IMG/VR virus record: IMGVR_UViG_3300025701_000014
Span: 1-55,423 of that record
From: a virus
Lineage: Duplodnaviria; Caudoviricetes
Strand: one strand, 5' to 3'
Length of the DNA stretch: 55,423 nt
How positions within the stretch are numbered: the first letter of the stretch is position 1; every line of letters begins with the position of its first letter. Both the position numbers and the translations under genes were made by a program. The notes beneath the pieces were generated by a model. That model was not told the origin of the DNA and did no database searches. It worked only from the letters and a program-made list of their open reading frames with translations. Below are positions 20,968 to 51,800 of the stretch, piece after piece.

Positions 20968-23052
20968 ATGAACTGGTTAGAAAACGTAGAGCTATACCTA
21001 AGATTAAAACTAACAGGGAATCCCACTCGGGATTCCTTCGGGGTAACCCTCCTCAAGAAGTATCCCGAATCTATGGATAGGCTCCAAGAGTATGGGCAAA
21101 TAGCACACCTTGTTATCAGTCGGCAAGCTAAGAATGTAAGCGGTAATATACATTGTAAACTAACAGTAACAAGTATCGCTATTGGCAAGAGCATCCTCTC
21201 CACTCTAACCAAATCTAAAAGAAATGATTGGAAAGATGAGGTGCGCCTTGGTGACCTCTTCATCGAAGCATTCTACCGGCTAGGTTTTATTGATATTGTT
21301 AAACCTGAGTTCAGATCAACACGGCCCGTGGAGATTATACTCTTGGGTACATTCCCATCAGAACTCCCAGAGCCTGTCGTCAAGATGGCACTGCATGGTG
21401 TGTGGAATCAAAAGCCTAAAGATATTAATAGGGCTGAACAAATAATCCAGTTCAACATTGATAGTCTCAAGTACACTGTACCTATCGTGAAGCGCTGGGA
21501 TGAAGTCCTCGATGGACCCTTCAAGGATCTGTTAAAGACTAAAGCAATCAAGGCCGTTAACAAACTACAACAAGTGGGTTGGACTATCAACAAGGATGTA
21601 CTAGCAGCTGTCGAGAGCAACCCGTATATGTTCTACAAAGAGCACGACAAGTCTAGTGAGAACCTGTCAAAGAAGATTGACTACGCTTACACTGTAACAA
21701 AGGCCAAGGTCTTATCCAAAGAGGACAGCTTCTACTACGCACTGGATGTAGATTACCGTGGTCGTGTTTACTATGTTGAGAGCTACATGAACTTCCAAGG
21801 ATCGGACCTAGCAAGGGGGCTTCTGTGCTTCTCTGAGGAGGCTTTAGTTACCCCCAGTGGGTTACGCTGGCTTAAGATACATTGTGCCTCCTCGTACAAC
21901 GAGAGCTATTCTAAGGACAATATACCAGCGTGGTGTACATCGGATTACAGATCACACCTAGATGCTGAAGGATTGGATGATATCTCTGTGGACAAGATGA
22001 CCTTGAGGGACAGGGAGCTGTGGGTAGACAACAACATACTTGAAGTTTACAAAACAGCATTAACAAAAACACTACACAGCTGTGAGAAACCAGTGGCATA
22101 TCTGGCAGCTTGTATAGAACTACTTAAATATAAGGAAGCCAATGGTAATTATTACTCTCGTATGCCTGTACCAATTGATGGTAGCAACAATGGATGGCAA
22201 CACCTAGGGGCGATCTCTAAGGATGTACAAACAGCTGAGCTTGTTGGTCTTGTTCCAGTCGATATTCAGAATGACTTCTATGTGCAGACAGCAAAGAAGC
22301 TAATCGAGATTACAAAGGATGTAACTCGAAGTTCAATACTGCAAGAGATGCCCATGAAGAAAATCCGAAAGGGTATCAGTAAGCGTGGGAGCATGACAAG
22401 AGCTTACTCCGCAGGCGCTCAGAAGATCGCAGAGAATATGTATCAGGACTGTAAGGGGTATGGTTACTGTGCCGAGTATGGTATCACTGAAGAGATCTGC
22501 AAAGGTCTTGCAAGAGATCTAGTCAAGGCTATTCAGTTAGTCTGTCCCGGTCCTCTTCAAACCATGAAGTACCTACAACAACTAGCTAATGATAGGTTAG
22601 ACCAAGGCTATGGTTACATGACATGGACTTCACCCTCAGGGTTCCCTGTGATCTATACCTGCAACCATCAACGCTCAGAGAAACAACGAGGGACTATTAG
22701 TGGCATCGGCCAGATCAACCACGTAGCTAAGGTAGATACCAACGTGTCTGACCGTAGGGGTTTTATGTGTGGGATCTCACCTAACTTTATCCACTCACAA
22801 GATGCAGCGCACATGAGTTTAGTCATCGATGAATTTGATGGTGTCTTTGGGGCTGTCCACGATAGCTTCAGTACCCATGCATCGAAAGTCGATGAGCTAC
22901 TTAAGATAACCAAACGAGTCTTTGTTGAGATATACAATGAAGATAACTACTTTGATAACATCCAGAATAGGATTGAAGCAACAGCTGATCAACCAATAAC
23001 TGGTAGTTTAAACATACAAGATGTGGAGAAGTCAGATTACTTCTTCGCCTAA
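20968..23052 (+). CDS. Single-subunit T7-type RNA polymerase, compact (694 aa)
   Basis: DYRGRVY, QGSDLARGLL, PIDGSNNGWQH, KRGSMTRAY, PNFIHSQDA, VHDSF and C-terminal YFFA. Confidence 0.95.
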   Translation: MNWLENVELYLRLKLTGNPTRDSFGVTLLKKYPESMDRLQEYGQIAHLVISRQAKNVSGNIHCKLTVTSIAIGKSILSTLTKSKRNDWKDEVRLGDLFIEAFYRLGFIDIVKPEFRSTRPVEIILLGTFPSELPEPVVKMALHGVWNQKPKDINRAEQIIQFNIDSLKYTVPIVKRWDEVLDGPFKDLLKTKAIKAVNKLQQVGWTINKDVLAAVESNPYMFYKEHDKSSENLSKKIDYAYTVTKAKVLSKEDSFYYALDVDYRGRVYYVESYMNFQGSDLARGLLCFSEEALVTPSGLRWLKIHCASSYNESYSKDNIPAWCTSDYRSHLDAEGLDDISVDKMTLRDRELWVDNNILEVYKTALTKTLHSCEKPVAYLAACIELLKYKEANGNYYSRMPVPIDGSNNGWQHLGAISKDVQTAELVGLVPVDIQNDFYVQTAKKLIEITKDVTRSSILQEMPMKKIRKGISKRGSMTRAYSAGAQKIAENMYQDCKGYGYCAEYGITEEICKGLARDLVKAIQLVCPGPLQTMKYLQQLANDRLDQGYGYMTWTSPSGFPVIYTCNHQRSEKQRGTISGIGQINHVAKVDTNVSDRRGFMCGISPNFIHSQDAAHMSLVIDEFDGVFGAVHDSFSTHASKVDELLKITKRVFVEIYNEDNYFDNIQNRIEATADQPITGSLNIQDVEKSDYFFA

Positions 23053-24011: not shown

Positions 24012-24055
24012 AAGGGGAACCTCGGGCATTGCGCCTTGGGTTCCCCTTTTTTTTT
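24012..24055 (+). terminator. Strong terminator where the two transcription directions converge (possibly bidirectional)
   Basis: AGGGGAACC...GGTTCCCCT stem plus a long T run; A-rich on the other side. Confidence 0.85.
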
Positions 24056-27000
24056 AATGCATGTAATACTGAAACACAGACTTACCAGCGGCGTTAATAT
24101 CTGACCGCAATGCTTTCTTATTATGGTTTACTTTATTACGAAGTTGAGTCAGTCTCTGATTGAGAGCCATCTCTTTGTTGAGCAACTTATGGAAGTGCCT
24201 CACCTGCTTAACAGTAGCCTGTGTCGGGTTAGTGCTAAACTTATAACCAACATCACGCATACCCTTTTGGATGTTAGCCAGTGATTGATCCACGTTCAAC
24301 ACATCAACATTCTCAAGGTGTCTCTTCAAAGCTACAGGGGTTGCATCACCATACGCATCCACCTCAAGGCCAGTCAAAGATCCCATCATCTGGTGGACCT
24401 CGTTCAGACCAACATTAACTACAGAGTCTGGTGAGAGTCCCTTCAGTGTTTCTTCAAATGCTAACTCGGCTCTCTTGTTAGTATCTATAATCTCCTGCAT
24501 GAAGTCCCAGTCCATGGTGGCGTTCACCCAGTTCTCATTAACATCGTTCAACACAATATCATAACCATTAGCATCCATCTTAAAGGCATCGTAGATCTGG
24601 TAAAGATACGGATCACCACGGGAAGCATCATTAAGCCTACGCCAAGTGTTACCAGTAAATGTCAAAGCAGCAGTTGCTGCATCGATAGACTGTACCGAAG
24701 CTACAACAGAACGGTTCATTGTCTTAACACCAACCATGGGCTTGCCATTAACCAACTCAGCAGCTGCCGCAGATCGTCTAAGGGAACCATACCTTTCGAT
24801 AGAACGCTGAGACCTCTCTCCCTTAGTGAACTCTGTCCACTTAACCTCACCGACCTTACCACTTACAGAACCCCCAAGAGAGATCTCCATGCCAGTAGCA
24901 GTTGTCATTGTGAATGGTATATCTGCAAGAGCTGCATTAGCTGCCACACCTTTCAAGATTGATCTTGTTTGGATTGCCTCGTTAGACAGGACCTCGTGCA
25001 GACCAGTCGTGTACGTTGGTAATAGCAGCGCTGACAGTGATTTATTATCTGTCACTGACTGCAATGCAGCAAACGCTTCCTGATAACCAACAAGGTTGTT
25101 ACTCTCAAGTTCCTCTTGGGACATAAGGGCAGCTTCTTCGTTGACACGGAACATAGCGTCTGAGATATCACTAACAAAAGATTTAATATCACGGCCATAA
25201 CCAAAGGTCATTGTCGTGTATTTGTTGAGTGCTCTGTTGTTGAAGACCGCTCTAGCTACTGTGTAAACGTGAGGTGCAGCATCCCCCAAGAGGGACTCAC
25301 TGCCGGCAATGCCGTCCACATCTATCACATCAGCTAAGGTCTCGGCGAGCTGATCCCTGATGTCACCCTTATCTAGGAGGACTTTATCCTGACTCCTCAA
25401 CACACCAGTCATAAAGGCCATTGCCTTAGACCCCATGAGCATACCCCATGCAGCCAAACCGTTAGTCTTACCATCGATGTATGCGTTAAAGAAGGAACTA
25501 TGCCCAGCTGGGTTGTTGTCAACGATCACAGCTTTGTGGAACTTAACAAAGTCTAAGAGACCATCTATGTACAGAGGACCATCCTCACCCGCCTTGGCAA
25601 TAGCTGCAATCAACGCACCGTCAATCTCTGGATCTAAAGCTAGTCCAGAAAACTTCGGGAAGTTTGGATCTAACAAGGACACACCGTCCTCGATGGCTTG
25701 GTATATCTCATCCGCTTTCTCAGGAGAGATCGCCTCGTCAAGTAATGCTTGTAGCCGTTTACCCCAAGAGAGAAGCTGGGGTGTTGCCCTGAGGAGCATT
25801 GCAGGTCTCTCTGAGGGTAATGCTTCTGACCCACCATCAACTAAGTGTAGTGCATACATCTGCTCCAAGTTACGATGGACCCGGTTACCACGTTTAGCAA
25901 CAGCCGGTTGAGCACCTCTTGTAACAAAACGAACAAGCTTCGAGGAACTGGGATCAAACAAAGATTGCTGTGGTGCAGTACGTCCGTTAAAGCCCTGCAT
26001 GTAATACGTCAAGTAGTTAATACCCTTGCGTTCTTTTGCGATACCAAACAGGTGCTGAGCTGTTGATGTTTTGATTGATTCAAGAACAACGTTAGCACTG
26101 TACTCCGTCTGCTCTGGGTTCTCAGCGAGGGCTGCTTTCTCTTGAGCAATAAGGGCGGACATCTTTTTAGGACCAATGTTGTGCATGTTAGCAAACAAAT
26201 CAACGACAGGCTGGCCACTACCGGGCTGACTAAGGAGTGCTGGCAGCAAGGTCGCTAGTGCAACCCGGCTTCTAGTACGGTCAACAATGTGGCCTACCGT
26301 GCTTTGGTTACGCATCGCTTGGTCAATCAGCCTAGTGTTTACACGTTTCACTGGAGAACGTACAAGGGTTTTGAACTCACCAACTAGCTTACCATTAACT
26401 GGTTTAGTTTTAAGCGGGGATACTAGATTCTTACCGAAAGCCTTCTTCCGTAAAGCATCTGCTTGCTTAAAAACAATAGCACCTTCTGGGGTTAGCTGGT
26501 ATACCTTTGGCTTCTTAGCATCACCGGCACTAACCACATCCTCGCTTTCACGGATAAGATCTGGGTTAACCTTGACATAGTTTGAGAGCATGGCAGCACC
26601 AAGTGCTGTCGCCTGCTCAGAGGTCAGATCAGCAGAGACCGTGGCATTGTTGTTGCGTTGGTACTCACGGCTTATCGCTTGCCCCACACGCTCAGCTACC
26701 TTAGCAGCAGGTACTTGAGTCACGAGGGCCATCTCTGGTTCTGTGACTGGTTCACCAGCAGCCTTGAGAACTACATCCTGAGTCTCAGGGATTCCCTGTA
26801 GGTAATCAGAAAGCGTGTTCTCAATGGTAGCCGAAGCTACAGTTAAGAAGGTAGGTGATAGTTTCTTATCTACCTTGCTTGGATCTAAAACACTCTGAGT
26901 TGTTTCAATAGCACTCCAAGGACCTACTTCATTAGTCCCTGTCAGAAGGTCAAGGGCAGCCACAAGTGGTCTTGCCTGCACATCAGGTGATCCTGCAAGA

Positions 27001-27440
27001 ACCCGTGGATCTTGGTACAGACCAACACCAACTGCCCCTGAGTCAAAGGCATCACGTAGCGCCCTCGCTCTAACGAACAGACCGTTATTGCCTTCTGTTG
27101 CAGATCTCTTAGAGTCTGCTTTGTACTTGTAAATGTTTGAGGGACCTCCCGGCGCAGCTAAGTTTTCCCTAATACCGGGAAGCGCTTCTGCTTCTTGCTG
27201 AGCTTTTATTGCCGCCGCTCTCTCAGCTTCTGCGGCGATACCTTCAAGCACCCCCGCTTCAACAAGAGGCTCTGTCCCTACGGTAGGCGCTGTGGCAACT
27301 GAGGGTTGCTGTACAGGCGCTTCTGCTTCTTGTATTGGGGTTACCTCAGGGGTAACACCAAGTGTCTCTACGGGTGTTTCAAAGCCCTCAGAGGGCACCG
27401 GCATACCGGGCCTCCCCTGAGCTGTAATTATCTTACCCAT
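24054..27440 (-). CDS. Second, divergent single-subunit RNA polymerase; putative virion-packaged RNAP
   Basis: Ordered motifs GFNGR, YIDGKTNG (A), RALNKYTTMTFGYG (B), VQSIDAA...IYDAF (C); last gene of the internal-virion cluster. Confidence 0.82.
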   Translation of the reverse strand: MGKIITAQGRPGMPVPSEGFETPVETLGVTPEVTPIQEAEAPVQQPSVATAPTVGTEPLVEAGVLEGIAAEAERAAAIKAQQEAEALPGIRENLAAPGGPSNIYKYKADSKRSATEGNNGLFVRARALRDAFDSGAVGVGLYQDPRVLAGSPDVQARPLVAALDLLTGTNEVGPWSAIETTQSVLDPSKVDKKLSPTFLTVASATIENTLSDYLQGIPETQDVVLKAAGEPVTEPEMALVTQVPAAKVAERVGQAISREYQRNNNATVSADLTSEQATALGAAMLSNYVKVNPDLIRESEDVVSAGDAKKPKVYQLTPEGAIVFKQADALRKKAFGKNLVSPLKTKPVNGKLVGEFKTLVRSPVKRVNTRLIDQAMRNQSTVGHIVDRTRSRVALATLLPALLSQPGSGQPVVDLFANMHNIGPKKMSALIAQEKAALAENPEQTEYSANVVLESIKTSTAQHLFGIAKERKGINYLTYYMQGFNGRTAPQQSLFDPSSSKLVRFVTRGAQPAVAKRGNRVHRNLEQMYALHLVDGGSEALPSERPAMLLRATPQLLSWGKRLQALLDEAISPEKADEIYQAIEDGVSLLDPNFPKFSGLALDPEIDGALIAAIAKAGEDGPLYIDGLLDFVKFHKAVIVDNNPAGHSSFFNAYIDGKTNGLAAWGMLMGSKAMAFMTGVLRSQDKVLLDKGDIRDQLAETLADVIDVDGIAGSESLLGDAAPHVYTVARAVFNNRALNKYTTMTFGYGRDIKSFVSDISDAMFRVNEEAALMSQEELESNNLVGYQEAFAALQSVTDNKSLSALLLPTYTTGLHEVLSNEAIQTRSILKGVAANAALADIPFTMTTATGMEISLGGSVSGKVGEVKWTEFTKGERSQRSIERYGSLRRSAAAAELVNGKPMVGVKTMNRSVVASVQSIDAATAALTFTGNTWRRLNDASRGDPYLYQIYDAFKMDANGYDIVLNDVNENWVNATMDWDFMQEIIDTNKRAELAFEETLKGLSPDSVVNVGLNEVHQMMGSLTGLEVDAYGDATPVALKRHLENVDVLNVDQSLANIQKGMRDVGYKFSTNPTQATVKQVRHFHKLLNKEMALNQRLTQLRNKVNHNKKALRSDINAAGKSVFQYYMH

Positions 27441-27442
27441 GT

Positions 27443-30400
27443 TTACTCCTTATTATATCCCCATTCATCAGCTGGTTGAGTTATATTCTCAACAAGTGTA
27501 TCACGTAGCTTTGGTAGGCTACCGAGAGGTGTTAGTTTAGCAGCAGCCTTAGCTGCCTTGGTGTAGTCACCCTCGATGAGGGAACCTGTTGCTGTCATAA
27601 GTTTATCTAAAGTACCAAGAGCTGGTGCTTCCCCAGATGTTTTATTCCAAGCCCAGTCAGCATAACCCTGAGATCGAGACTCATACATTGGTGCTATAAA
27701 ATCAATAACACGCTGGCCAGTACCGAGAAGACCAGATGAAGACACAGCCCTCCGGGCTTTCTCCATATCGTCAAGGTATGGGTTTTCTGTACCCCACTTC
27801 ATCCTATCCTTTAATTCCTGAGAGGCATACCCCATAGCAATCATGAGGACCATCATAGAAAATGCATGGTATTTCATTTGAGGACTACCACGTTTGACAT
27901 ACTCTCCCCAAAGCTTAGGGATAAATGTAGATTGGAAAACAGCAATAAAGCCTGAGAACTGAGTGAACATTGCAAACCGAGGATCATGATAGATCATAGG
28001 TCGGTTAGCAGTTGTTGGCATCATGATGGCATCATTGATAAATGCAAAGGTACCATTAGTTATTTCATTTCTCAGCTGCTCTGCCTCTACTTCTGTCAAG
28101 GGATAGTTAAACGCTTGTTTCTTAGCTAGCTCTGTAAACAACTCAACATTAATGTGCAGGTTGCGTAAGTGCTCCTCAGCTTCCTCAACAGCTTTAGTCT
28201 TGGGAGTGCTGCTATCCCACAGGTAGATTGTCTCTGCGTGGTTCAGCATATAGTCCCAAGCAATAGATGCACGGACTGCCCTTGTCATTTGGGTCCAACC
28301 TTGCAAACCGTTCCACTTAAAGAACTGAGAGATTAGGTTTTGTTTCAATGCATTGGTTTCAGTCACACCTGTTTTAGATGCAGCTCCAGCTTCTTGCTCG
28401 TTGTAACCAAGCTCTTGGATAATACGCTGACCGTTAGTTTCAGTTTTGGCTAGCTCTACCCTAGTGATTGTGGAGAATATCTCCTTACCACCATTATAGA
28501 ACATAGTCCCAAGTTCAACACCGGCTGCCTTCAAACCACCCTTACCGAATATCTGTTGGTTAGTTAATCCTTTAAACAAAAGCATAAGCTCTACGGTAGA
28601 ACTAACAGTTGCTGTACTCAAGGCTCCAAGAATCGTAAAGGTTAAGAAGTTCTTTTGGATCTTCTGTGCCAACTTACCAGCGTCTGTGGTTGCCCTCTTG
28701 TAGTTACCTGACTCAGCATCAAGGTAATCCTTCATCTTCTTAGCGATCCTAATAAGATCAGCTTCAGATACGCCCTCCGCCCTTGCCTTCTCTAGCTGTG
28801 CTGCGATAACACTACCGTTAATACCTACATACTTTTGATATGCAACAAAACGTGCAGCAGACTTAATAGCGTAGTTGACATTTGTGAAGATGTCCTGCTC
28901 TAAGAACTTATCAAATGCAGGATTCTCAGAGAGCCCCAAGGTCCTTGCCCTATGTGAGCCGGGTATTGGGGTACCGTCTGTTACCGAGAATGCCTTATCA
29001 TCAGGTAATAAACCATCGATGTCATTCTTGTTAGGGTTCTCAATAATGTTAGTTGCAATATCATTAGCCATTGCTTCAGTCATCCCGTGGGACTCACCAT
29101 ACTCTGACATTAAGGCGGTTATAAAACCAGCCCTGTCACCGGCAACAGCGTTCTTGTTAAGTGATTTAAACTTAGAGAAGTAGTTACTAATCTCACCAAC
29201 ATCACCATACTTTTGTTGTTCCTTCAACATACTATCAGACAATCGTTGTAGTCTTTCAATCTCCTTAATATAGAGTTCCCTGTTGGGCATCTCTGGTATC
29301 TTAGATGTATCGAGAACACCCTTGTCGTTAACAGCGTCCCGCCAGATATTGTAGAACTGACGGCTTAAGAGTTCCCTTTTCTTACGGCTAGGTCTGATAC
29401 CCCCATTAATGGTTGAATAAAACTCTGTTGGTTTTGTGTAGGCGTTCTCCCACTTTGCAACTAACAAGTGTTTAAAAGATTCAAAATCATTACCACTGTA
29501 TGTTGTTTGAAGACCACCACCAAACGATGCAGCTAACTTACGAATAGATGGAGAGATATTTTTCAACCGATCTAAGAATATGAAACGAGTAGATCCACGC
29601 CAGAAGCGAGTGCTTGAGACAGCCACATCAAACACGGTGTCCGCCTTTGTACGTTCGCCTTTAGGCTCTTCTTTCTCAGCAAGCTCATTAAAGATATTCT
29701 TATCAGGAGATACAGCAGCTGCCCTTCGAGCTTCCTCTAGGTTCTCATCTATTGTAGGTATGAACCCATTGTTAGTTCTCCTTTCTTCTTCGGCCCACTT
29801 ACCAGAGTCGGACAAACCACTACCGTCTGCTTCAGTACCTCCCCAAATAGCTGCCTCCCACTGGGCTTGGTTGGTCACACCACTGGCTGTCCCTAAAGAA
29901 CCACCAAGGGCAGCACCAGCCACAGCAGCTTGGGTCATACGGTTTAACGCCTCATTAAAGTCAAATGAAGAATCCTCAATGTGAGCCGCAGTATAACCAA
30001 TCAGTTCCTGAACCGCTTCAGTAGCGCCCTCAGTTACAGTACCAGCAGCACCACTCTTTAAGATATCTTTAATGGCATCACGACTTCTTAGTTGATCTTT
30101 AAGAATACGTGAAGCGTCTGTGGAGATACCTGCAAGCTGTGACTTAGACATTTGAATAACATCTTTCAGTGCAGCCTGAGTCATTCCTTCAGTGACTTCA
30201 ATCCCAAGCTCTTTAGCTTTCTTAATTGCTAATTGCTCAGCAGCAGCGTTAAGCATTTTCTGTGGGGTATCAAGCTTACCAAAACCACCAATAAGTTTAG
30301 TAACACCAAACAAATCTAAAGCACCTTGGATTGCACCACCACCAACAGCAAGTGCCCAGTTCTTAGCATTATCTGCTTGTTCGTTCCAGATAGACCCAGC

Positions 30401-31402
30401 ATACACGCTTGCAGGAACCAGTAAAGAAAGACCACCTGTATACGGGGCTGCTACCAAGGAAGCTGTTGACATAGCCATGTACGGTAATGACATACCTGCG
30501 TTATTACTTACAAACTCCCAAGCATCTCCAGCGCTATCTACATCCTGATAGTCCAAAAGAACTTGAGCACGGTTAGCCATCTCGGTACCTTTGCGGTAGA
30601 CTCCGTTTTCACCAAACTCCTTAACAGAATCAAGACCTAAAGTGTCTCCAAGCATTTCAGCAACACCGTATGAAGCCTCAGCAAAACCAACCATCGCAGC
30701 CCCTACGGAACTAGAGAAAGGATTGTACGCTTGGTTCTTTAAGTTCCTATCCTTGTGCCGGAACATAACTGTATCCGTTAAGTACTTGCTTGGGTTAGCA
30801 GCGTACTGTTGTTCGTTGAGTGCTAGTTCTTTAAACTTAGTTGCATCGTAACCCTCAGCTTCTCGTGCTGCATTAACTTGAGCGGCTAGCTCATCAAACA
30901 AAACTTGATCTTCACCTCTAGGAACAGTGTCCCCCATCCACTTAGATACTGCAATAGCTGTAAGGTCTTCCTTCGTCACCCCCTCGACAGGTTCAAACAC
31001 ACCAGACGTCAGTAGCTTTGTGATGAAGTCTTCACCTTTGTGATTGACAAGACGTCCTGTCCTGCGCCCAAATGCTGCATCAATACCAGTATCTTTAATT
31101 TCTGTATAGCCATGCTTAGTTGCAAAATCCTTAACAGCCCCTAAGGCTGCTAAACCTCCTGCGGTTCCAGTTTTCTCTACCCATTCTCCAGATCTATCTT
31201 GTACCCACTTAGCTACCTCAGGTGCATCAAATCCTTGAAGACGTACATTGGGCCCCCCATCGGAGGCCACAACAGTATCTGCATCTAACCAATCGGAAAC
31301 CACTAAGGGTTCCTCGATTGGCGCTTTTTTAATAGAGAGGTCTTGGCTAGCTTGTACTTGTTGGGCTTCTTGAAGAATCCCTTGTAATACATTATCAACC
31401 AT
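27443..31402 (-). CDS. Large internal virion (ejection) protein with N-terminal thermonuclease-like domain
   Basis: 1319 aa, helical with Gly/Ala-rich hydrophobic stretches; N-terminal DADT...VRLQGFDAPE...DAAFGR. Confidence 0.7.
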   Translation of the reverse strand: MVDNVLQGILQEAQQVQASQDLSIKKAPIEEPLVVSDWLDADTVVASDGGPNVRLQGFDAPEVAKWVQDRSGEWVEKTGTAGGLAALGAVKDFATKHGYTEIKDTGIDAAFGRRTGRLVNHKGEDFITKLLTSGVFEPVEGVTKEDLTAIAVSKWMGDTVPRGEDQVLFDELAAQVNAAREAEGYDATKFKELALNEQQYAANPSKYLTDTVMFRHKDRNLKNQAYNPFSSSVGAAMVGFAEASYGVAEMLGDTLGLDSVKEFGENGVYRKGTEMANRAQVLLDYQDVDSAGDAWEFVSNNAGMSLPYMAMSTASLVAAPYTGGLSLLVPASVYAGSIWNEQADNAKNWALAVGGGAIQGALDLFGVTKLIGGFGKLDTPQKMLNAAAEQLAIKKAKELGIEVTEGMTQAALKDVIQMSKSQLAGISTDASRILKDQLRSRDAIKDILKSGAAGTVTEGATEAVQELIGYTAAHIEDSSFDFNEALNRMTQAAVAGAALGGSLGTASGVTNQAQWEAAIWGGTEADGSGLSDSGKWAEEERRTNNGFIPTIDENLEEARRAAAVSPDKNIFNELAEKEEPKGERTKADTVFDVAVSSTRFWRGSTRFIFLDRLKNISPSIRKLAASFGGGLQTTYSGNDFESFKHLLVAKWENAYTKPTEFYSTINGGIRPSRKKRELLSRQFYNIWRDAVNDKGVLDTSKIPEMPNRELYIKEIERLQRLSDSMLKEQQKYGDVGEISNYFSKFKSLNKNAVAGDRAGFITALMSEYGESHGMTEAMANDIATNIIENPNKNDIDGLLPDDKAFSVTDGTPIPGSHRARTLGLSENPAFDKFLEQDIFTNVNYAIKSAARFVAYQKYVGINGSVIAAQLEKARAEGVSEADLIRIAKKMKDYLDAESGNYKRATTDAGKLAQKIQKNFLTFTILGALSTATVSSTVELMLLFKGLTNQQIFGKGGLKAAGVELGTMFYNGGKEIFSTITRVELAKTETNGQRIIQELGYNEQEAGAASKTGVTETNALKQNLISQFFKWNGLQGWTQMTRAVRASIAWDYMLNHAETIYLWDSSTPKTKAVEEAEEHLRNLHINVELFTELAKKQAFNYPLTEVEAEQLRNEITNGTFAFINDAIMMPTTANRPMIYHDPRFAMFTQFSGFIAVFQSTFIPKLWGEYVKRGSPQMKYHAFSMMVLMIAMGYASQELKDRMKWGTENPYLDDMEKARRAVSSSGLLGTGQRVIDFIAPMYESRSQGYADWAWNKTSGEAPALGTLDKLMTATGSLIEGDYTKAAKAAAKLTPLGSLPKLRDTLVENITQPADEWGYNKE

Positions 31403-31413
31403 GTTGTTGTCCT

Positions 31414-33708
31414 CTATGTTTGTTTATTCAATCTATCAATTGACCAAGTTAAGAATGCGTTAGATCCCTCTATGGCTTTATCTTCCCAGTTTGCTCTTTC
31501 AGCATCACTCAAGCTTCTCCAAATTATAGCAAGGTTGTTTAAAACGACCTGTTGGTCTCCTCCACGCCTTGCTCCCTTTTGGCTCAATGTATTATACAAA
31601 GTGCTTACTTGTTCGGGGTTTGGGTTTCCAGCATACAAAGTGTCCTTTAGCTGAGGAGAAATGTCTTGAGCTACAAGATCCCGAAGAACCATCTTAATTA
31701 CTTGAGGATCTTCCAGATTAACATCAGGGCTTCTTGCCCTGAGCGCTTTCATTCCATCTAAAACAGTTGGCAAAAGATCTGTCATCTGTCCGGGATCCAT
31801 CTTGTTATCAAGAGAATACTGGACCATCGCATTAGCAACAGCTGTTGGGGAGAAGGTTGGATCAAGTCTCTCATTCTTCTTTTTACCCTGAGCTGATTCC
31901 ATTTGAGATTTAACCTCCTTGAGCTGTGGTAGCAAAGTGTCCATAGCATAATTACGCATAGACTTGTAATCCTCAAATGTATTAAACTCTGAGACATCCA
32001 CGGGCTTCCCCTTTTGGTCAAGCCATTGGACAACACCTGTGTTGGCGTCTTTATACTCCCTAAGCTTAACTTGTCTTTGATCCTTATCTACAAAGACTTT
32101 AGGCAAATCCACTGGAGCCCATGCAGGCTTTAACTTAAGGTCGGCTACATCACCTGTATCTTTATATTTCTTAAGGCTATCTGGAGTATACTTTGCAGTG
32201 CCTGTCAGTTTATCTACAGTGGCTAATTTCTTTTCAATACCAGAAGCATAACGCTTAGTTACATAGTCTAAAGAACCACCATGACTATTACCCAGAAGGC
32301 GTGAACCAAGGTACATGACAGCCGCCTCAGATAACTTGTCCTTATCAATGATAGAAGACAGACCTTCCTTAAAGAAGTCCTTAACTTTGTCAAGAGCTGT
32401 TGGTGGAAGTGCTCCCTCTTTCTTTTTCCCATCGCCTTCCCCTAACAATTCCCGTTGTTGCTTTTCAGCTTCTTCAGCTATCTTAATAGCTTCATCTTCA
32501 TCTAAAGTGATTTCAGGCTTAGGTGTTTCAAGCTCAGGTTTATTAATAGTGTTCACATCAATCTCAACACGATAAGGATCAACTGGGGGCATCACCCCCT
32601 CTTCAGCAAGAGAAGGTACAGCCTGTTCTTTATCAAGGGCTTCCCTTTCTCGCCACGCCTTAGGTTTATATATATCCTTAAGACTCTCAATAATATTAGA
32701 TTGACTTGGATAACCAGCCGCCTTAGCTTCTTGACGTCTAGATAAAGCCTGTTCGGCCATTTGTTGAGCAACATTACCCATAGGTTTCAGAAGGGGGCCA
32801 TCAGGTTCTGGTATAGATATTGGTGGGTTATTAAGAGAGTCAACTGCTGTCATCCCCAATGCCTTCTTAACTATCTCTTCCTGAGAAGGAACTGAACCAA
32901 GACCAAGACTATCTAAATAATCAAAATCAACAGAGACCCCTTGACCCTTGGGGATATCTGCAGGCTCAAAATCAACAGAGAACTCTTGACCCTTGGGGAT
33001 ACCTACAGGCACTGGGACGGCTAGCTGCTCTACAATAGTTGGGTCGTTTAATACAACTGAAAGATCTTCAGCAGTAGCGCCCTTTTGTAAAGCCTCTACA
33101 ATTTTATCTTGTAGTTGATTATATGCAAAATCAGACTCAATTGCTTTGTAATCCTCTGGGCGCAGTACAGCTCCACCCTCTGCTAAATATTTATCTGATA
33201 AACTATTCAACACGAGGCCCCCAAGAATAGACCCCAGCCCGGAACCTGACTTAAGCAACTCAAGGATCATGTTCTTGTTACTATTATCATCATCTTTTTT
33301 ATAGCGATTAGAATACTCTTGCATCTCACCACCAACTTCACCACCTTCATTGTGGTATCTTTCCTTAACGCCGCCACCACATGCCCGATAGTCAGGTATG
33401 CTTCCACCCTGTGCTTTCTGAACTGCTCTGCCAACATCATTCATTTGTTCTATCTGAGGCTCAAACATCCTAGTGGCCTCTGCATTCATTACAAACTCGC
33501 CGGGTGTTAACCAAGCGGGTACAGTGTCTGTTCCTTTAGGTTCACCCGGAAAGTCAGGTACACCAGTCAGTTGGGGTATAGCAATCCCACCAAGGAACTG
33601 TTCAATAATCTTTGAGGAACGAGAGTCCCCCTGTGCAGAGTCCGTACCGAACTCAATAGACACTTGAGATCCGTGTCTATCCTTGTGCATAATTTTCTTA
33701 ATACTCAT
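31414..33708 (-). CDS. Putative internal virion protein
   Basis: Position in the cluster; GTDTVPAWLTPGEFV motif and repeated xxGGxV motifs. Confidence 0.6.
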   Translation of the reverse strand: MSIKKIMHKDRHGSQVSIEFGTDSAQGDSRSSKIIEQFLGGIAIPQLTGVPDFPGEPKGTDTVPAWLTPGEFVMNAEATRMFEPQIEQMNDVGRAVQKAQGGSIPDYRACGGGVKERYHNEGGEVGGEMQEYSNRYKKDDDNSNKNMILELLKSGSGLGSILGGLVLNSLSDKYLAEGGAVLRPEDYKAIESDFAYNQLQDKIVEALQKGATAEDLSVVLNDPTIVEQLAVPVPVGIPKGQEFSVDFEPADIPKGQGVSVDFDYLDSLGLGSVPSQEEIVKKALGMTAVDSLNNPPISIPEPDGPLLKPMGNVAQQMAEQALSRRQEAKAAGYPSQSNIIESLKDIYKPKAWREREALDKEQAVPSLAEEGVMPPVDPYRVEIDVNTINKPELETPKPEITLDEDEAIKIAEEAEKQQRELLGEGDGKKKEGALPPTALDKVKDFFKEGLSSIIDKDKLSEAAVMYLGSRLLGNSHGGSLDYVTKRYASGIEKKLATVDKLTGTAKYTPDSLKKYKDTGDVADLKLKPAWAPVDLPKVFVDKDQRQVKLREYKDANTGVVQWLDQKGKPVDVSEFNTFEDYKSMRNYAMDTLLPQLKEVKSQMESAQGKKKNERLDPTFSPTAVANAMVQYSLDNKMDPGQMTDLLPTVLDGMKALRARSPDVNLEDPQVIKMVLRDLVAQDISPQLKDTLYAGNPNPEQVSTLYNTLSQKGARRGGDQQVVLNNLAIIWRSLSDAERANWEDKAIEGSNAFLTWSIDRLNKQT
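32921..33001. repeat. 36-bp direct repeat with 45-bp period inside the CDS
   Basis: 32921-32956 versus 32966-33001 differ at 2 positions; encode IPKGQxxSVDF. Confidence 0.85.
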
Positions 33709-33722
33709 CAGAGTCTCCTTGG

Positions 33723-34622
33723 TTAATAGCTTTGCTTATACGCTTTGTCACTCTCAGCTTTTGTCATATGCTTTGCCTTGCCAGATTTAATAAGTTCATC
33801 AATCGCTGATTCAACTTCCTCGAAGCTACCCGCAGGTATTGTTGCCCCAAGCCTGTTGTTAAATTGATCCATCTCACGAGCAGGCTTATTTAATGAGAGG
33901 TACTCCCGCATGTTAGCAGCGGTCAGTGCAAGGTTTGGTGTATCTGATTGGCTTGCTAAGTAACCTAGTGCTAGGTGTCTTGCAGCATCTCCAGTTCCAT
34001 CTTCACGGGTTTCCTCTGGGTATCTTTTATCTTGTGCCTTAGCCCAGTTAAGCGACTCATCATCAATACCAACAAGGTTGGCAACAAGACTTTGGGGGCT
34101 TACAGATCCACCCTCAGCTAAGTTAATTGCTGGGGTATAATTGATATATGGATTACCAACAGTGATAGGTTCTTGACTACCGTAGACTGAGTATGGCGCT
34201 GTAGTCCGAGGTGTGTAGTGAGGCCACAACATAGATGGGTCCCAGCTTACTGTGGGTACGTCATCAACCGGACTCACCGGTACCGTTTCAACAATCGGCT
34301 CTGGGACCTTCGGTGGTTCTGGAGCAACAGCTGGTGTAATGATTGGTGCCATTCCTTCTTGATATCTAAAACCAGTATTCTTAGTTTCATACTGCGGCTC
34401 CGGGGGTGGTTCTACTGGTGGGACATCTACCGGTGCAACATCGATTGTCGGTGTTTCCTCTGGGATTATTTCAGTAGGAGTTGAAGGCCCACCCGCAGGG
34501 GGTTGCATGTATGGGGTGTACTGTGGGTAGCCGAAGTTGCTGTATCCGGAATAGTTGAAATCATTAATTGCAACAGTCCCTCCAACGCTAAGGTATTCAG
34601 CTAGTGGGTCTTCATACTTCAT
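33723..34622 (-). CDS. Putative virion protein: Pro-rich N-terminus and DAxRH...DxxNNxxG C-terminal domain (DUF6973-like)
   Basis: GDAARHLALG and REMDQFNNRLG motifs. Confidence 0.55.
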   Translation of the reverse strand: MKYEDPLAEYLSVGGTVAINDFNYSGYSNFGYPQYTPYMQPPAGGPSTPTEIIPEETPTIDVAPVDVPPVEPPPEPQYETKNTGFRYQEGMAPIITPAVAPEPPKVPEPIVETVPVSPVDDVPTVSWDPSMLWPHYTPRTTAPYSVYGSQEPITVGNPYINYTPAINLAEGGSVSPQSLVANLVGIDDESLNWAKAQDKRYPEETREDGTGDAARHLALGYLASQSDTPNLALTAANMREYLSLNKPAREMDQFNNRLGATIPAGSFEEVESAIDELIKSGKAKHMTKAESDKAYKQSY

Positions 34623-45638: not shown

Positions 45639-45812
45639 TTATTGAAACAAAACAGCTGCAAGCTGCTTAATAAAATCTGACTGATCAGATATATCGGTTT
45701 CTGCGTTTATGTGAATTTGAGTATTATCATCAAAATCAATTTGCATTGACGCTGATGACACCACTGGCTGTACCCTATCCGGGTGCCAGTTTATAAATGT
45801 AATATTAGGCAT
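45639..45812 (-). CDS. Small hypothetical protein (57 aa, MPNITFINWHPDRV...)
   Basis: Hand translation; AAGGA RBS; overlaps the fibre stop codon; not in the ORF track. Confidence 0.65.
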   Translation of the reverse strand: MPNITFINWHPDRVQPVVSSASMQIDFDDNTQIHINAETDISDQSDFIKQLAAVLFQ

Positions 45813-48800
45813 TTTTTAATTCCTTTATTTCGTTCTGTAGGTCTTTAACCTGTTGTGATAATTGTTTAACTGCTTCAACTAATAAACCAGCGGTATTGCC
45901 GTAGGCTACACCATACTGGTCAACATCTTCAGCATATGTCACTAATGGTTTAGCGCCTTCAATTTCATTTACTTCTTGGGCGATGAAGCCAATAACGGTT
46001 TTCTTTTCTTCGTCATCAATACGGTTGTAGTAAACGCCACGCATCTGCTCGACAGTTTCCAGAGCATTATCAATAGTGCGAATGTTCTCTTTCACTCGGC
46101 GATCTGAGTAGGCGGTAATGTTGCCAGTAGAATATATACCACCGCCTTGCTCATATAGTCCGTAAGAGGATGAGGTAGAAGAACCAGCTACCCCAAGACA
46201 TCCGTTATCACGATGGAAATAGGTATACCAGCCCCAGTTACTATTGTACTCGCCCCCATTTCCGCCGCCGTCATACATAGCGGTGGTGACGTTGCCATGA
46301 TCAAGATGAATCCCAGTGTACCCATTTCTTGAGCCAATGATTCTCCAAGTGCCGTAGCTTGTAGCGCCGTTTGGGTAGAAATGTGCGTTATTAATGGATG
46401 GCATGTACAGCCCATGCTCCGCCGTCAACTGAATCCAATTGTTTGCTTGGTAGTAACTATTACCAAACTTGCCAAGGAAATTGTCGGAGTTGTAGCCATC
46501 AAGCAAATCAGCATCTAAGCCTGAGCCTGAGCCATCGTTATATGAAGACCAAAACTCGTAAGCTGTACCGTAGCTAGTTCCCCTATTAGATTGCGAACTA
46601 ATCCACATCCTAGGCTGGCCATTTCTTATAAGGTGTAGCGCGCACATATTTTCTACATCACCGCCGCTATACCCATTTATCCAAAGAGTATCTGACCATA
46701 CATTTGGATAACCAGTCATGGCAACCTTTAGGCCGGTAAGGTAATTAAAGTAGACCTGCGGATTTGTCTGCTGGCCCCCAGCATATAAGGTTGGCAAAGA
46801 ACCTGCCGACCCTGCTGTATTCGCGTAATTTACAGATAGTGCCGAGGGCTGCTGTCCATCCAACAAATCAGCATCTAACCCAGAACCTGAGCCGTCGTTA
46901 CCAGAACCCCAAAGGGTGCCAGCATTATAGTTCATGATTACGTCGCCAGCGTTGAAGTCAAAATCAAGACGGTTACTAGCATTTGTATAAATACCTACGT
47001 GAGAATATCCATTTCGATGTAGACCAATCCCAGCCGTGCCTGAAGTCGCTCGAACCTCTACCTGCAATCCGTTGTAGTAGTTCGAGGGGGAAGCGATGTT
47101 TTGGTCAATTAAAAGCTGCCCTGTAATCTCTTGATCGCCATAAACACTTAGCTCTTTATATGTCCCACCGCCACCGAACCTTACAATTGGAGAGTAGGAA
47201 TTAGCAGTAGAGCTTGCGTAGTCAAGATATAGCGGGAGACCGTTTCCGTCATCACGCTTTCTCAGCCGGTGACGATACTGACCAGTCTGGTAATTCCCGT
47301 CAAAAACAAGACCGTTGCTCGTATTAGACTCAGCGATTGAGCCAGTGAAGACCCTCGCCATGCCAGTGTAGATTTGCTCGGCAGCGAAGGTCTGTGTGTT
47401 GGTCTTGTCAGCGAAAAACGATGATTGGTTCCCATCCAAATAATCAGCATCTAAGCCAGAACCTGAGCCGTCGTTGCTATCACTCCAAAGTTTTGCCCAC
47501 CCGCTAAAGCTCCCTCCAGAGCAGCCTCGGGCAAATATAGTTCCACCTTGGTTATACTGGCCAGCTACCTGTATACCATAAGCATTTCCGCCGGTAGTAC
47601 CATAAGAATTAGTGGTATAGTGTAAAGCATTAAATCCGTGAACGTGGCTTGTACTAGGAGGCAGGTTAGTACTAGACCAGATATCGAAGAAACCACTTCC
47701 TCCATGAAACACCTCATTTGCGCCTATGCCGCTGTGGCCCATTGAGCCTACATGGTAGTTTGCATCCGAAGTGTAATCTATCCGTCGGCTATATGAGTTT
47801 TTAGCGGACAATCCCATGTGGACTTTAAAATCCGTTAAAGTCGAATATCTTAGGTAATTGTCACCAGAAGAGTAGATTCTAGTTAATCTATTTGTTATTC
47901 CAGAATCACCAGAGTCAGTATTAATCCAACCCGCTTGGATGTACCCATTAGCATCAGTTCTAACTACTTTGTTTGCTTCATTATTTCTGCCAGTGTGTAG
48001 TTGAAGTCCGTCTAAAAGATCAGCATCCAAACCAGAGCCTGAGCCATCGTTAGCTGTATTCCATATTTTTGCCCATGCACTTAAACTACCGTTATTATTG
48101 TTTCTGTTATACAAATCTCCCGCAGCGTAGAACGAACCAGCGATTTGATGTCCATGATTGCCACCATAATGCGCCATGTTTACCATGGAATACCAAGTGC
48201 CTGTAGGAGTACCATCGGAATATACATCATAGAACCCAGAGTCAGTGTTTGCACTGCTGCCAAATGCAATGTTGGTGGTGCCTTTTCCATTGCCACCTTT
48301 GACGATATTACTAGCTTGCCACCCATCAACAGTGTCAGCATCTAAGCCTGAGCCAGAGCCGTCGTTGGCTGTAGTCCAGAACTCATGCCAGCCGCCCCAG
48401 TTACCATTCCCCCACTGATTTCTAAACGCTATTCTGTCTAGGCTAGACTTAGCATAAAACTGAAGCCGGACATCTGAGCCACCAGCATCACCGAATTGTA
48501 AAAAGGAACCAGTTGATCCAAATGGGTTATTGGAAATACCACTAGCCGCTTCAGTAAAGTAAACACCGGCATTTACAATGGAATTTAAATTACCTGTATA
48601 ATTAGATGGTACTTTTATATAAGCAGGATTTGAGCCATCAGTCTGAACCAAATACTGTGACATCTGGCTTGCAAAGTGTGCTGGAGTAGACTTTCTTAAA
48701 TAGTTATCGCCAGTGCTTTGAGTCCATATTTGTCCAATAGTAGGGTTCTCAGAGTTTCCAGCAGAGGCATTAAAGTAACTGCCAAGAATATAGTTTCCAT

Positions 48801-51800
48801 AAATATGACCACCGCCCTCACGAACTACGACAGTATTTGCTGTTGCAGATGTGGAAGTGTTGTATCCATCTAACAGATCAGCATCTAAGCCAGAGCCTGC
48901 TCCGTCATTACCTGCGTGCCAAGCGGTGTTTCCTAGAATCTGTAGCCCGCTAGTATTAAACAGCCCGAAAACTGACGAGCCATATCCAAAGTTGTTAATC
49001 GAAGTTGCCGCACCACTAATAGACATTGTGGACGTGTTATCTGAACTTATCCTTGTTTTCCATGAATTGTAATTGTTGGTTGTTACCCCAAAGTAGAGCG
49101 AACTTGAGCCACGAATAGAGGCATTATTTACAATATCTAAATCTAAATTAGTCGTATCCATACCAGAAATGTCTTGTCCGATAGAGATAGCGTTGATATT
49201 GCTGATATTACGGCTTGAGTCTATTACTGTGGTGCCGTTTATTTGATAACCGCCCAAAGCGTTGATAGTAAAGTTATCGCCAGACCCTCTATTGATCGCT
49301 GTATGCCACCCATTCTGCGCAGCATTCAAGATGTTATAGCTTCCACTATTGTAAAAAGTAGCGGACGTCATATGGCTTGATGTACTGATAACGCTATTTG
49401 ACGACAATGTCCCAGTCAAAGTACCGCCAGACAATGGCAGATAATTATGCACATGGTTGGCATTCGCATAGCCCGCAAGCGCGTGATCGCCCCAATCATA
49501 GGCAGCGTTCCAGTTGCTCGAATAGTCTGTAAAAGGCAATGTGTAAACTGTGTCGGTAAAAACAGCCCCAGCAGGAACGTTGGTAAGAACCTGGGAATCA
49601 TCTACTTTATTATCAAGAGCTGTTTGCAACCCAGTAATAAAACTTATTGGGTGACTTGAGGGGTGGGTATAAACTGTATCTGTAAACAAAGCCCCAGCAG
49701 GAACATTAGTTAATACTTGAGAATCGTCAACCTTACCATCAAGAGCAGTCTGCAAGCCAGTGATAAAACTAATAGAGTGACTAGTAGGGTGTGTGTAGAC
49801 CGTGTTTGTGTCGGTGCTGGATATCGTAAAGTTAGGGTATGCTCCAGTAACTGTAGTTGCTCCAGAGCCAAGCAGGGTTACTGTTTGATCCGGTGCAGTA
49901 TTACTGAACACAGTTCCTGTTAACGCCAACCCAGAACCAGCAGTGTACGTAGTGTCGTTATCTGTGTACGAAGTTAAATACCCAGCATCTGCGTGGTTAC
50001 CCCAGCTGTAAGCAGTGTTCCAGTTTCCTGAGTTACCACCGGCAGCATACAGAGTGTTGACCTGCATATCAGCGATAGTGAATGATGCGTCCGTGATATC
50101 AATGTACGGAGAGGCATCGGGCTCTGGCAGGTAACCATCGTAAACTTTCCAGATACCATCTGTAGCATCTCTAAAAATACCAGCATGGGCATAAGTGCCA
50201 TCATTGTACCCGCCAGCAATACCTAGGTCTGGGTTTGTTACAACAGAGCCTTCATTTAGATAAATCATATTATCCGCAATTGCAAGTTCAGTGGCATTAA
50301 CTGTTACAGTAGTACCATGTACCGTTAAGTTACCATCAATCTCCACACTACCTGTGCTATAAACATCTCCAAGAGTGACAGTTCCTGCAAGTTGTGCTGC
50401 AACTGTATCACTGAAGTCTGCGCTTACTGATTTATTTAAAGCATTGCCAAGGAAAAACTTACCCTCATTCAGATTGGGGGTAGCATTAGTACGGCCAGCA
50501 CCGGCAACAAAGATTGTCCCAACAGATGCATGAACTCGCTCAACTTTACCAATGTTCTGAATTAAAGAGTTTTCACCAGATGGTGCAGAACTAACAAGAC
50601 CTCCGGGCACTGTATCCACATAAAGTGTTTGACCAAGGGTGTAAGCACTGGTGTTCATGTTTTCCAGTTGACCATAAGTTACAATATCAACTGCGGCATT
50701 AAGGTTAGCTGTACCTCCGGCCAAACCAAACGCAGGCATCTTGCCCGGATCGTCTGAGTCTGCCTTCATAACAATGGGTGTGTTACCACTGACACCAGAG
50801 ATGTACACAGGAACACCTTTAGTCAAGGCTTCACCTGCTTGCGCTTTAAATAGTTGGTTGCCACGCAAGGACCCAGTAAACAGTGGTGCAGTAACCTCAC
50901 CGGTAAAGTCAGCACCGGTTAGTGGGGCGTAGTCAATCGTATCACTAATAGTAATCCAAACAGAACCTGACCAAACATACATCCCATTGTCAATTGTGTT
51001 AAAGTATAAAGCACCAACAGATAATGGATTGCCCTGATTATCCAGAGTAGGTGCAGATGCATAGTCTCCAAGGTAATGCTTTTCAAAATCTAAGAGATGG
51101 CCTTGAGCAGTTGTAGCACTAGCGGCAGCAGCAGTTGCACTAGCGTCTGCACTTGTAGCACTAGAGGCTGCATTGGCTTCGCTAATACCCGCTTGTGTTG
51201 CACTAGTAGCTGCATCATTAGCACTTGTACTTGACGATGTAGCACTTGCGGCTGCACTTGTTGCGGATGTGGCTGCGCTTGTAGCACTCCCTGCGGCTGC
51301 GGTAGCACTCGCAGTTGCATTAGTCTCTGATGCAGTTGCACTAGTGGCGCTTGAAGCTGCGCTGGCTGCACTGCTTGCAGATGCTAGCGAACTACTTAAA
51401 GAACTAACAGCAGAGCTAGCAGCGTTTGTTGCAGAAGCTTCTGCATTAACCTCAGCGACAGAGGCATCAGTCGCACTTGAGGCTGCGTTGTTAGCAGAAG
51501 ACAGAGAGGCAGCTGCACTAAGACTAGAGGATGACGCACTATCTGCTGAAAGTACAGCACTAGAGGCTGCTGCGGTTTCACTATCAGCTGCATTGTTAGC
51601 TGCGGTTTGTGCTGTTGTTGCGCTAGTGGTTGCACTAGTAGCACTAAGAGATGCACTGAGGGCATCTGCTGCAACAGAAGACTCACTGGCTGCTGCTGCG
51701 GTAGCACTTGTGGCTGCATTAGCAGCGCTTGAGGCTGCTTCATTTGCAGAGTTAGTCGCATTGGTTGCTGCGGTTTGTGCGGTTGTTGCACTGGTTGCCG

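Follow-up and report, generated by a model that had tools for sequence, protein, structure and literature searches.

The window analyzed here, a stretch of 55,423 nt that spans positions 1-55,423 of the virus record IMGVR_UViG_3300025701_000014, encodes a protein of 1319 amino acids (aa), P0001, in the open reading frame (ORF) 27443..31402(-). Judged from sequence profiles and a structure model, the N-terminal domain of this protein is truly, if distantly, homologous to staphylococcal nuclease (SNase). We propose that residues 33-159 form a genuine and probably active nuclease of the SNase superfamily, fused to an ejection protein resembling gp16 of phage T7, and that this nuclease would be ejected, gated by Ca2+ and active in the periplasm; the proposal as a whole, which draws on profiles, on a model and on analogy to T7, is given a probability of roughly 55%. 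An earlier, sequence-only reading of the window had placed a thermonuclease-like domain at 30983..31306, which corresponds to residues 33-140 of P0001, and translation of the ORF confirmed the motifs DADT, RLQGFDAPE, DAAFGR, and LLTSG that it had read there, the last of them ending at G134. No second ORF of at least 80 aa overlaps that span, and the ATG of P0001 is preceded by a GAGGA ribosome-binding site.

The homology is carried by profiles built from relatives of the domain. A phmmer search with P0001 residues 1-160 against 1.84 billion representatives resulted in 63 proteins at E<=1e-3. One of these, P0003 (5162 aa), was rejected as a family member, its score being a sum over 15 repeat stretches of 7.5-8.8 bits each, and the remaining 62 representatives constitute the family considered here. 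Four profiles were prepared: A1, from the query and 23 short family members; A2, which is A1 without P0063, the sole member above the Pfam cut-off; A3, from 30 full-length proteins over 1284 positions; and A4, from the query and the first 170 aa of 24 full-length proteins, with no short or free-standing members. Against the sequences of the PDB, A1, A2, and A4 retrieved SNase with best E-values of 4.3e-8, 2.5e-6, and 2.4e-7, respectively; SNase-type chains accounted for 31 of the 33 matches of A2 at E<=1, and for 60 of 60 among the matches listed for A4. These alignments cover approximately residues 16-136 of the 149-residue SNase, i.e., ~120 residues and so more than the motifs alone, and they lay DADT on DGDT, R..D.PE on FRLLLVDTPE, and GR on DKYGR. 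Because the hidden Markov model (HMM) alignments put the motifs on the SNase motifs, the residue mapping that had been read from the letters alone (D42 to SNase D21, R54 to R35, D59 to D40, E62 to E43, and R113 to R87) holds. Pfam SNase was touched at E<=1 by 11 of 24 family members.

Other routes into the databases gave leads of varying strength. A word-index protein search with residues 1-200 matched the query alone, with none among proteins of 88-280 aa; the same type of search with A2 at longer lengths found 19 proteins of ~1300-1390 aa, which carry no precomputed Pfam domain and have 'hypothetical protein' as their only name. The ESM Atlas offered sub-threshold leads (scores 0.88-0.89), including a 'putative Nuclease' and an SNase cluster. 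Three loci matched a degenerate DNA pattern encoding RLQG[YF]DAPE, at one of which (L001) there are only small ORFs at the match.

The predicted fold agrees with the profiles. In an AlphaFold2 model of residues 1-160 (pLDDT 84.1), an OB barrel is joined by three helices: the strands span residues 33-40, 43-46, 53-55, 101-108, and 114-119, the helices 81-97, 126-133, and 144-159; residues 20-32 form a low-confidence linker, by pLDDT, between an N-terminal helix (2-18) and the domain. In a Foldseek search of the PDB, 50 of 50 among the matches listed were SNase, with a best E of 5.1e-5 and target-normalised TM-scores of 0.52-0.61. A Foldseek-independent scan of 48,161 chains with VIA-align ranked the SNase chain 1sta_A first, at Z 9.4 over 117 aligned residues with an rmsd of 3.7 A; SN-like domains of Tudor-SN came next (Z 9.2 and 8.8), and unrelated folds scored Z ~3. 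A structure model had been suggested as a check on the proposed homology, and SNase thus came out on top in both fold searches. Among viral models (BFVD), the best match of the domain model was a 1368-aa protein (E 2.5e-8), and the matches included a 1342-aa uncultured-phage protein annotated 'Staphylococcal nuclease (SNase-like), OB-fold'; automatic annotation had therefore already seen the SNase fold on at least one such protein.

As read from the alignments, the full catalytic set is present in P0001, with D42 and D59 as Ca2+ ligands, E62 as general base, and R54 and R113 as transition-state arginines; in SNase these roles belong to D21 and D40, to E43, and to R35 and R87, respectively. Conservation was counted in a local alignment of the 62 family sequences, from which P0003 had been dropped. 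D40, D42, R54, and E62 were each found in all 62, T43, R113, and G123 in 61, and G112 in 54; R113 is missing from a single sequence because that sequence is truncated. D40, D42, R54, E62, and R113 are also invariant in the full-length alignment A3. As the family representatives share 23-42% identity over the whole protein, the invariance of D42, R54, and E62 together with the near-invariance of R113 is the pattern expected of a working active site. The catalytic positions first named by the sequence-only reading are thus kept among homologues, least strictly at D59 (see below).

The domain shares with SNase (PF00565) the order of the fold (a five-strand OB barrel plus three helices) and a catalytic constellation arranged in the same order over ~125 residues. 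It differs in being built into a virion protein of 1319 aa as its N-terminal module instead of being secreted as a free enzyme, in reading DADT where SNase reads DGDT, and in having Ala60 at the position of SNase T41. In addition, a hairpin with a GTAGG conserved in the family replaces the short loop that follows the catalytic Glu of SNase; its strands are at residues 64-68 and 74-78, and the glycines G79, G82, and G83 are found in 52, 58, and 49 of the 62 sequences, respectively.

Several results weigh against the proposal. As a single sequence, P0001 stays under every curated threshold: no Pfam SNase match at E<=1 was obtained with the whole protein or with its first 140 or first 160 aa, PF00565 gave no match at E<=10 when the entire record was scanned in six frames while control genomes matched, NCBIfam gave no match to the window sequence, PHROGs gave no SNase match for the window N-terminus, and phmmer of that N-terminus against PDB sequences found no SNase. 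Profile A3 returned from the PDB at E<=1 four weak unrelated matches, neither SNase nor T7 gp16; we attribute its missing SNase to its length, because SNase is found by A4, which covers just the N-termini of these proteins. The Foldseek fits are moderate (TM-score 0.46-0.61, rmsd 4.4-6.2 A). The Ca2+ ligand at the D59 position is not invariant: 44 of the 62 sequences have D there, 15 have N, 2 have Q, and 1 has A. The domain is acidic, the median pI being 4.76 and 58 of the 61 members counted (a truncated sequence was left out) having a pI <7, whereas the nuclease of S. aureus is a basic protein. Finally, the window copy has G141 where 46 of the 62 have Y or F, next to the position of SNase Y113/Y115.

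Two other explanations draw on these points. That short motifs match by chance, with no homology to SNase, would fit the failure of the single sequence to hit any curated model, but three profiles match SNase over ~120 aligned residues and two fold searches rank SNase first; such a chance match is scarcely credible, and we consider it refuted by A1, A2, A4, Foldseek, and VIA-align. Of the HMM search against the SNase family that had been recommended as a check, the part that ran from family profiles to PDB SNase stands, and the part that ran from the single sequence to curated models does not. A non-catalytic SNase-like OB fold, serving as a structural wing or as a module that binds nucleic acid or a ligand on the channel in the manner of the inactive SN-like domains of Tudor-SN, appears improbable to us. 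The Z-scores of Tudor-SN are nearly equal to that of SNase, and the acidity, the variable D59 and the aromatic lost at position 141 in the window copy are in line with such a role, as is the N-terminal part of T7 gp16, which according to sections of a 2022 review of ejection proteins (PMC8954989) is also structural and forms the wings of the tunnel. The retention of D42, R54, E62, and almost always R113 at the low whole-protein identities given above argues in the other direction, toward a nuclease that is probably active. Moreover, the position that varies is that of SNase D40, the least critical catalytic residue according to the mutagenesis literature, and Asn is still able to bind Ca2+.

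The protein that carries the domain resembles gp16-like ejection proteins in its gene order and its relatives. Residues 161-1319, the body, are common to all 33 representatives of at least 900 aa (weakest E 5.4e-28), and nine shorter representatives, evidently fragments, also carry it. Residues 845-1206 match phrog_6958, a 'virion structural protein' (E 5.7e-28), and residues 817-1242 match gp51 of Pseudomonas phage tf (tblastn E 6e-9); further tblastn matches of the body are likewise to the last and largest structural-module protein, namely that of Pseudomonas phages NV1, UFV-P2, JB8, and BroderSalsa and of Roseobacter phage CRP-7. Phage tf gp51, which carries the annotation virion structural protein, is the product of the structural module's last and largest gene, and the tf record notes that it resembles LUZ24 gp50 and PaP3 p19. 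In the PaP3-like phage Pa223, according to the part of the preprint available (bioRxiv 10.1101/2025.06.11.659172), gp53 (1055 aa) was found in virions by liquid chromatography-mass spectrometry and is called a gp16-like ejection protein of the inner-membrane complex; it lies downstream of a gp15-like protein (gp54) and of a 313-aa gp14-like protein (gp56), and the authors' own alignment of gp53 with T7 gp16 is weak. Going by the record notes, Pa223 gp53 probably corresponds to tf gp51.

These gp16-like proteins of Bruynoghevirus and Krylovvirus (tf gp51, LUZ24 gp50, and Pa223 gp53) thus have in common with P0001 the C-terminal homology and the place as last and largest structural-module gene. 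They differ from it in being ~1020-1055 aa long, and since the N-terminus of tf gp51 has no SNase motif, the nuclease head is an addition in the lineage of the window. Because A3 retrieves no T7 gp16 from the PDB, the link to gp16 itself rests on synteny and on the Bruynoghevirus homologues. The genes for the 299-aa, 764-aa, and 1319-aa proteins follow each other in this order on the minus strand, with the same layout in CRP-7 and phage tf, which bears out the claim that the domain sits at the N-terminus of the largest protein of a gp14/gp15/gp16-type set. Within P0001, residues 1-560 are acidic (pI 4.2-4.9) and residues 560-1319 basic (pI 7.9-8.5). This division into an acidic N-terminal 560 and a basic C-terminal 760 aa fits a DNA-binding C-terminal part, and the C-terminal part of T7 gp16 binds DNA in the cytoplasm (PMC8954989, in the sections available). 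When P0001 was scanned by simple hydropathy for candidate membrane-inserting segments, one stretch of moderate hydrophobicity came up, at residues 919-942. In P0001 a single enzymatic domain was recognised. Polyvalent proteins of phages and conjugative elements (Iyer et al. 2017) are large, travel with the DNA and unite several enzymatic domains linked to conflict. As a separate observation, the 1319 aa of P0001 include no cysteine.

The nearest cultured relative of this marine-type, short-tailed phage is CRP-7, with a portal identity of 55%; the two phages share the gene order and a T7-like RNA polymerase (RNAP) gene convergent downstream. The N-terminus of CRP-7 gp34, a 'hypothetical protein' of 1368 aa, reads IDGDT...RFGFGDAGE...DPYGR and is 32% identical to P0001 residues 39-138. 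The two proteins are more divergent overall, and beyond the N-terminal module BLASTP aligns mainly their last 300 residues.

Where the nuclease would act is suggested by T7, whose gp16 carries at residues 1-156 a lytic transglycosylase that after ejection forms periplasmic wings on the gp15 tunnel (PMC8954989, as described in its available sections); the sequence-only reading was right in placing a transglycosylase at the equivalent N-terminal position. T7 gp16 and P0001 are each the largest product of three consecutive ejection genes, and each starts with an enzymatically folded module of ~150 residues that precedes a long body, although in P0001 this module has a nuclease fold and not a lysozyme-like one. 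Since the T7 module is periplasmic and the module of P0001 has the same size and the same place, we infer that the SNase head is periplasmic as well. P0001 would be packaged inside the capsid and leave it either before the DNA or together with it, and its head would end on the periplasmic side of the ejection channel, as do residues 1-156 of T7 gp16. SNase requires far more Ca2+ than the cytoplasm offers; the high Ca2+ of the periplasm of a marine host would switch the nuclease on, and low free Ca2+ in the cytoplasm would keep newly made P0001 harmless during assembly. The target may be nucleic acid outside the channel, either competing or superinfecting DNA, which is our preferred guess, or other nucleic acid that is accessible in the envelope.

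The main alternative site of action would be the cytoplasm, with the nuclease entering along with the DNA and attacking either host DNA or RNA, for early shut-off or nucleotide supply, or the nucleic acids of defence systems. The conserved catalytic set is compatible with this, genomes of phages and giant viruses commonly encode SNase homologues as free-standing proteins (annotated in BFVD as thermonuclease, TNase-like, or endonuclease), and the gene is translationally coupled to that of an RNAP-like protein, which would have to act in the cytoplasm. We nevertheless consider a cytoplasmic weapon unlikely, given the Ca2+ requirement of canonical SNase, the fact that DNA brought in by the phage itself would meet this enzyme too, the acidity of the domain and, in the sections of PMC8954989 that describe it, the periplasmic residence of the T7 gp16 N-terminal module. 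Host attack, counter-defence and exposure of hairpin promoters had all been suggested as roles of the injected nuclease. The last is the least likely of the three, because the analogy to the T7 module would put the domain in the periplasm, away from promoters; as nothing places it near promoters, this idea was set aside.

A Ca2+-gated periplasmic nuclease carried in the capsid has to be reconciled with a precedent from phage T4. In a fusion of T4 IPIII to SNase from the laboratory of L. W. Black, SNase is packed in the head, and such fusions are delivered to the host; heads that contain the fusion lose infectivity within minutes of the addition of external Ca2+, their packaged DNA being digested (PMC9026906, section 2.7 among the available parts). 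That capsid-borne SNase plus Ca2+ destroys phage DNA is a further point against our proposal, and a natural nuclease of this kind must therefore be restrained until ejection. The T4 construct is artificial and digests its own packaged DNA, an outcome that the natural family must avoid; the restraint might come from the acidic surface, from the GTAGG hairpin, from the N-terminal helix, or from sequestration in the core.

The same juxtaposition of nuclease and genome allows for an enzyme that acts on the phage's own DNA, trimming or releasing the leading end at ejection or processing the termini. The domain adjoins DNA in the capsid, at the head of the ejection channel, and two related records (G002 and G003) have direct terminal repeats. 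SNase-type enzymes are not sequence-specific, however, and nothing in the sequence suggests a specificity module. Homologues of the Bruynoghevirus type do without the domain, and a packaged SNase degrades head DNA wholesale (PMC9026906, in the parts available). Action on the phage's own genome is thus very improbable, and a nuclease released toward the host envelope is the reading that we retain.

Full-text literature searches for SNase or thermonuclease together with ejection or internal virion proteins found no paper, and looser searches found nothing relevant, PMC12629253 being a paper on other phages. The word 'nuclease' does not occur in the available sections of the ejection-protein review (PMC8954989), nor does it begin any word in the accessible main text of the CRP-7 paper, which does not mention the domain; the accessible main text of the polyvalent-protein paper (Iyer et al. 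2017), its supplements aside, has none of the terms SNase, staphylococcal nuclease, thermonuclease, and micrococcal. Enzyme fold and cargo position are thus both known, but we did not find the two described together in the literature. The peptidoglycan-cutting domain of T7 gp16 is the one enzymatic head known on the ejection proteins of short-tailed phages, and a conserved nuclease head would mark the N-terminal position as a swappable cargo slot, in keeping with the lysozyme module of a related record described below. The puzzle is that engineered SNase kills T4 once Ca2+ is added, yet this family keeps the catalytic residues. That a widespread lineage of CRP-7-type podoviruses packs a non-specific, Ca2+-gated nuclease against its own genome and fires it first into the host envelope is possible but doubtful, and we put it forward tentatively. 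If it were true, there would have to be a safety mechanism that silences SNase in a DNA-filled, ion-permeable capsid, and ejection proteins would have a new job, namely to destroy competing or host nucleic acid in the periplasm or early on, be it for superinfection exclusion or for takeover. A conserved nuclease head as such would equip an abundant group of marine phages with an injected nuclease for use early in infection. The features discussed here are located in Table 1.

Table 1. Location of P0001, its parts and its neighbours in the window.
Feature	Positions	Strand	Basis
P0001, 1319 aa, gp16-like largest ejection / internal virion protein with putative N-terminal SNase module	27443..31402	-	phrog_6958 match and ORF call
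N-terminal helix, residues 2-18 (predicted)	31349..31399	-	AlphaFold2 secondary structure
SNase-fold domain, residues 33-159, OB barrel and three helices	30926..31306	-	profiles, AlphaFold2, fold searches
D40-A-D42-T43, aligned to SNase D19-G-D21-T22	31274..31285	-	HMM alignments A1, A2, A4
R54-LQGF-D59-A-P-E62, aligned to SNase R35...D40-T-P-E43	31217..31243	-	HMM alignments
Beta-hairpin, residues 64-78, ending in G79-T-A-G-G83, family-specific	31154..31213	-	AlphaFold2 and alignment
D108-AAF-G112-R113, aligned to SNase D83-K-Y-G-R87	31064..31081	-	HMM alignments
P0001 body, residues 161-1319	27446..30922	-	phrog_6958 and tf gp51 matches
764-aa protein in gp15 (periplasmic tunnel) position	31414..33708	-	synteny
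299-aa protein in gp14 (outer-membrane channel) position	33723..34622	-	position only
1128-aa protein, weak RNA-polymerase match	24054..27440	-	phrog_414 E 3.1e-7

The sequence-only reading had described the domain as lying next to a virion RNAP gene, a claim that holds in part. The adjoining gene for the 1128-aa protein starts 2 nt after the stop of P0001, with an AGGAG inside the end of the P0001 gene, and is translationally coupled to it; its product has the weak phrog_414 match listed in Table 1, but no match in Pfam, PDB sequences, NCBIfam, or phage records. Co-occurrence of the nuclease with a second RNAP, proposed as a check, was likewise seen in part. In the related record G002 a homologue of the 1128-aa protein follows the SNase-ejection gene (38% identity, E 7.6e-131), whereas CRP-7 gp33 lies in the same position with a similarity that is not significant (BLASTP E 0.031), and the contig of a third related record (G001) ends inside the ejection gene and is uninformative on the neighbour.

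On the other side of P0001, the 299-aa protein has a weak match to DUF6973 and showed no hydrophobic segment in a simple hydropathy scan. In a related record (L002:7641-9992(+)) the protein in the gp15 position contains a lysozyme/endolysin module at residues 62-222 (phrog_7 E 5.4e-29), so that a peptidoglycan hydrolase is found there on the gp15-position protein instead of on the gp16 counterpart as in T7. The 764-aa protein of the window is homologous to this protein outside the module, has no lysozyme and differs in its middle (~residues 110-435). The module in the related record points to an exchange of enzymatic modules between ejection proteins of this kind.

Some family members show other arrangements of the domain. 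In P0040, a metagenomic member of 1437 aa, the SNase domain is at residues 202-332, after ~200 extra N-terminal residues that have no Pfam or PHROG match and may be a second cargo module in tandem. Two bona fide SNase-like members, P0063 and P0007, match phrog_8809 (2317 positions, a phage family of unknown function) at ~1100-1217, so that giant proteins of other phage families may contain SNase modules as well.

Elsewhere in the window, a 694-aa T7-like RNA polymerase is encoded at 20968..23052(+) (phrog_414 E 1.2e-105); its gene and the structural and ejection module converge, as they do in CRP-7, with a thymidylate synthase and a ribonucleotide reductase nearby. A 2279-aa tail-fibre protein, encoded at 45805..52644(-), is matched by several tail-fibre PHROGs and has a C-terminal Peptidase_S74 intramolecular chaperone domain (E 7.5e-14).

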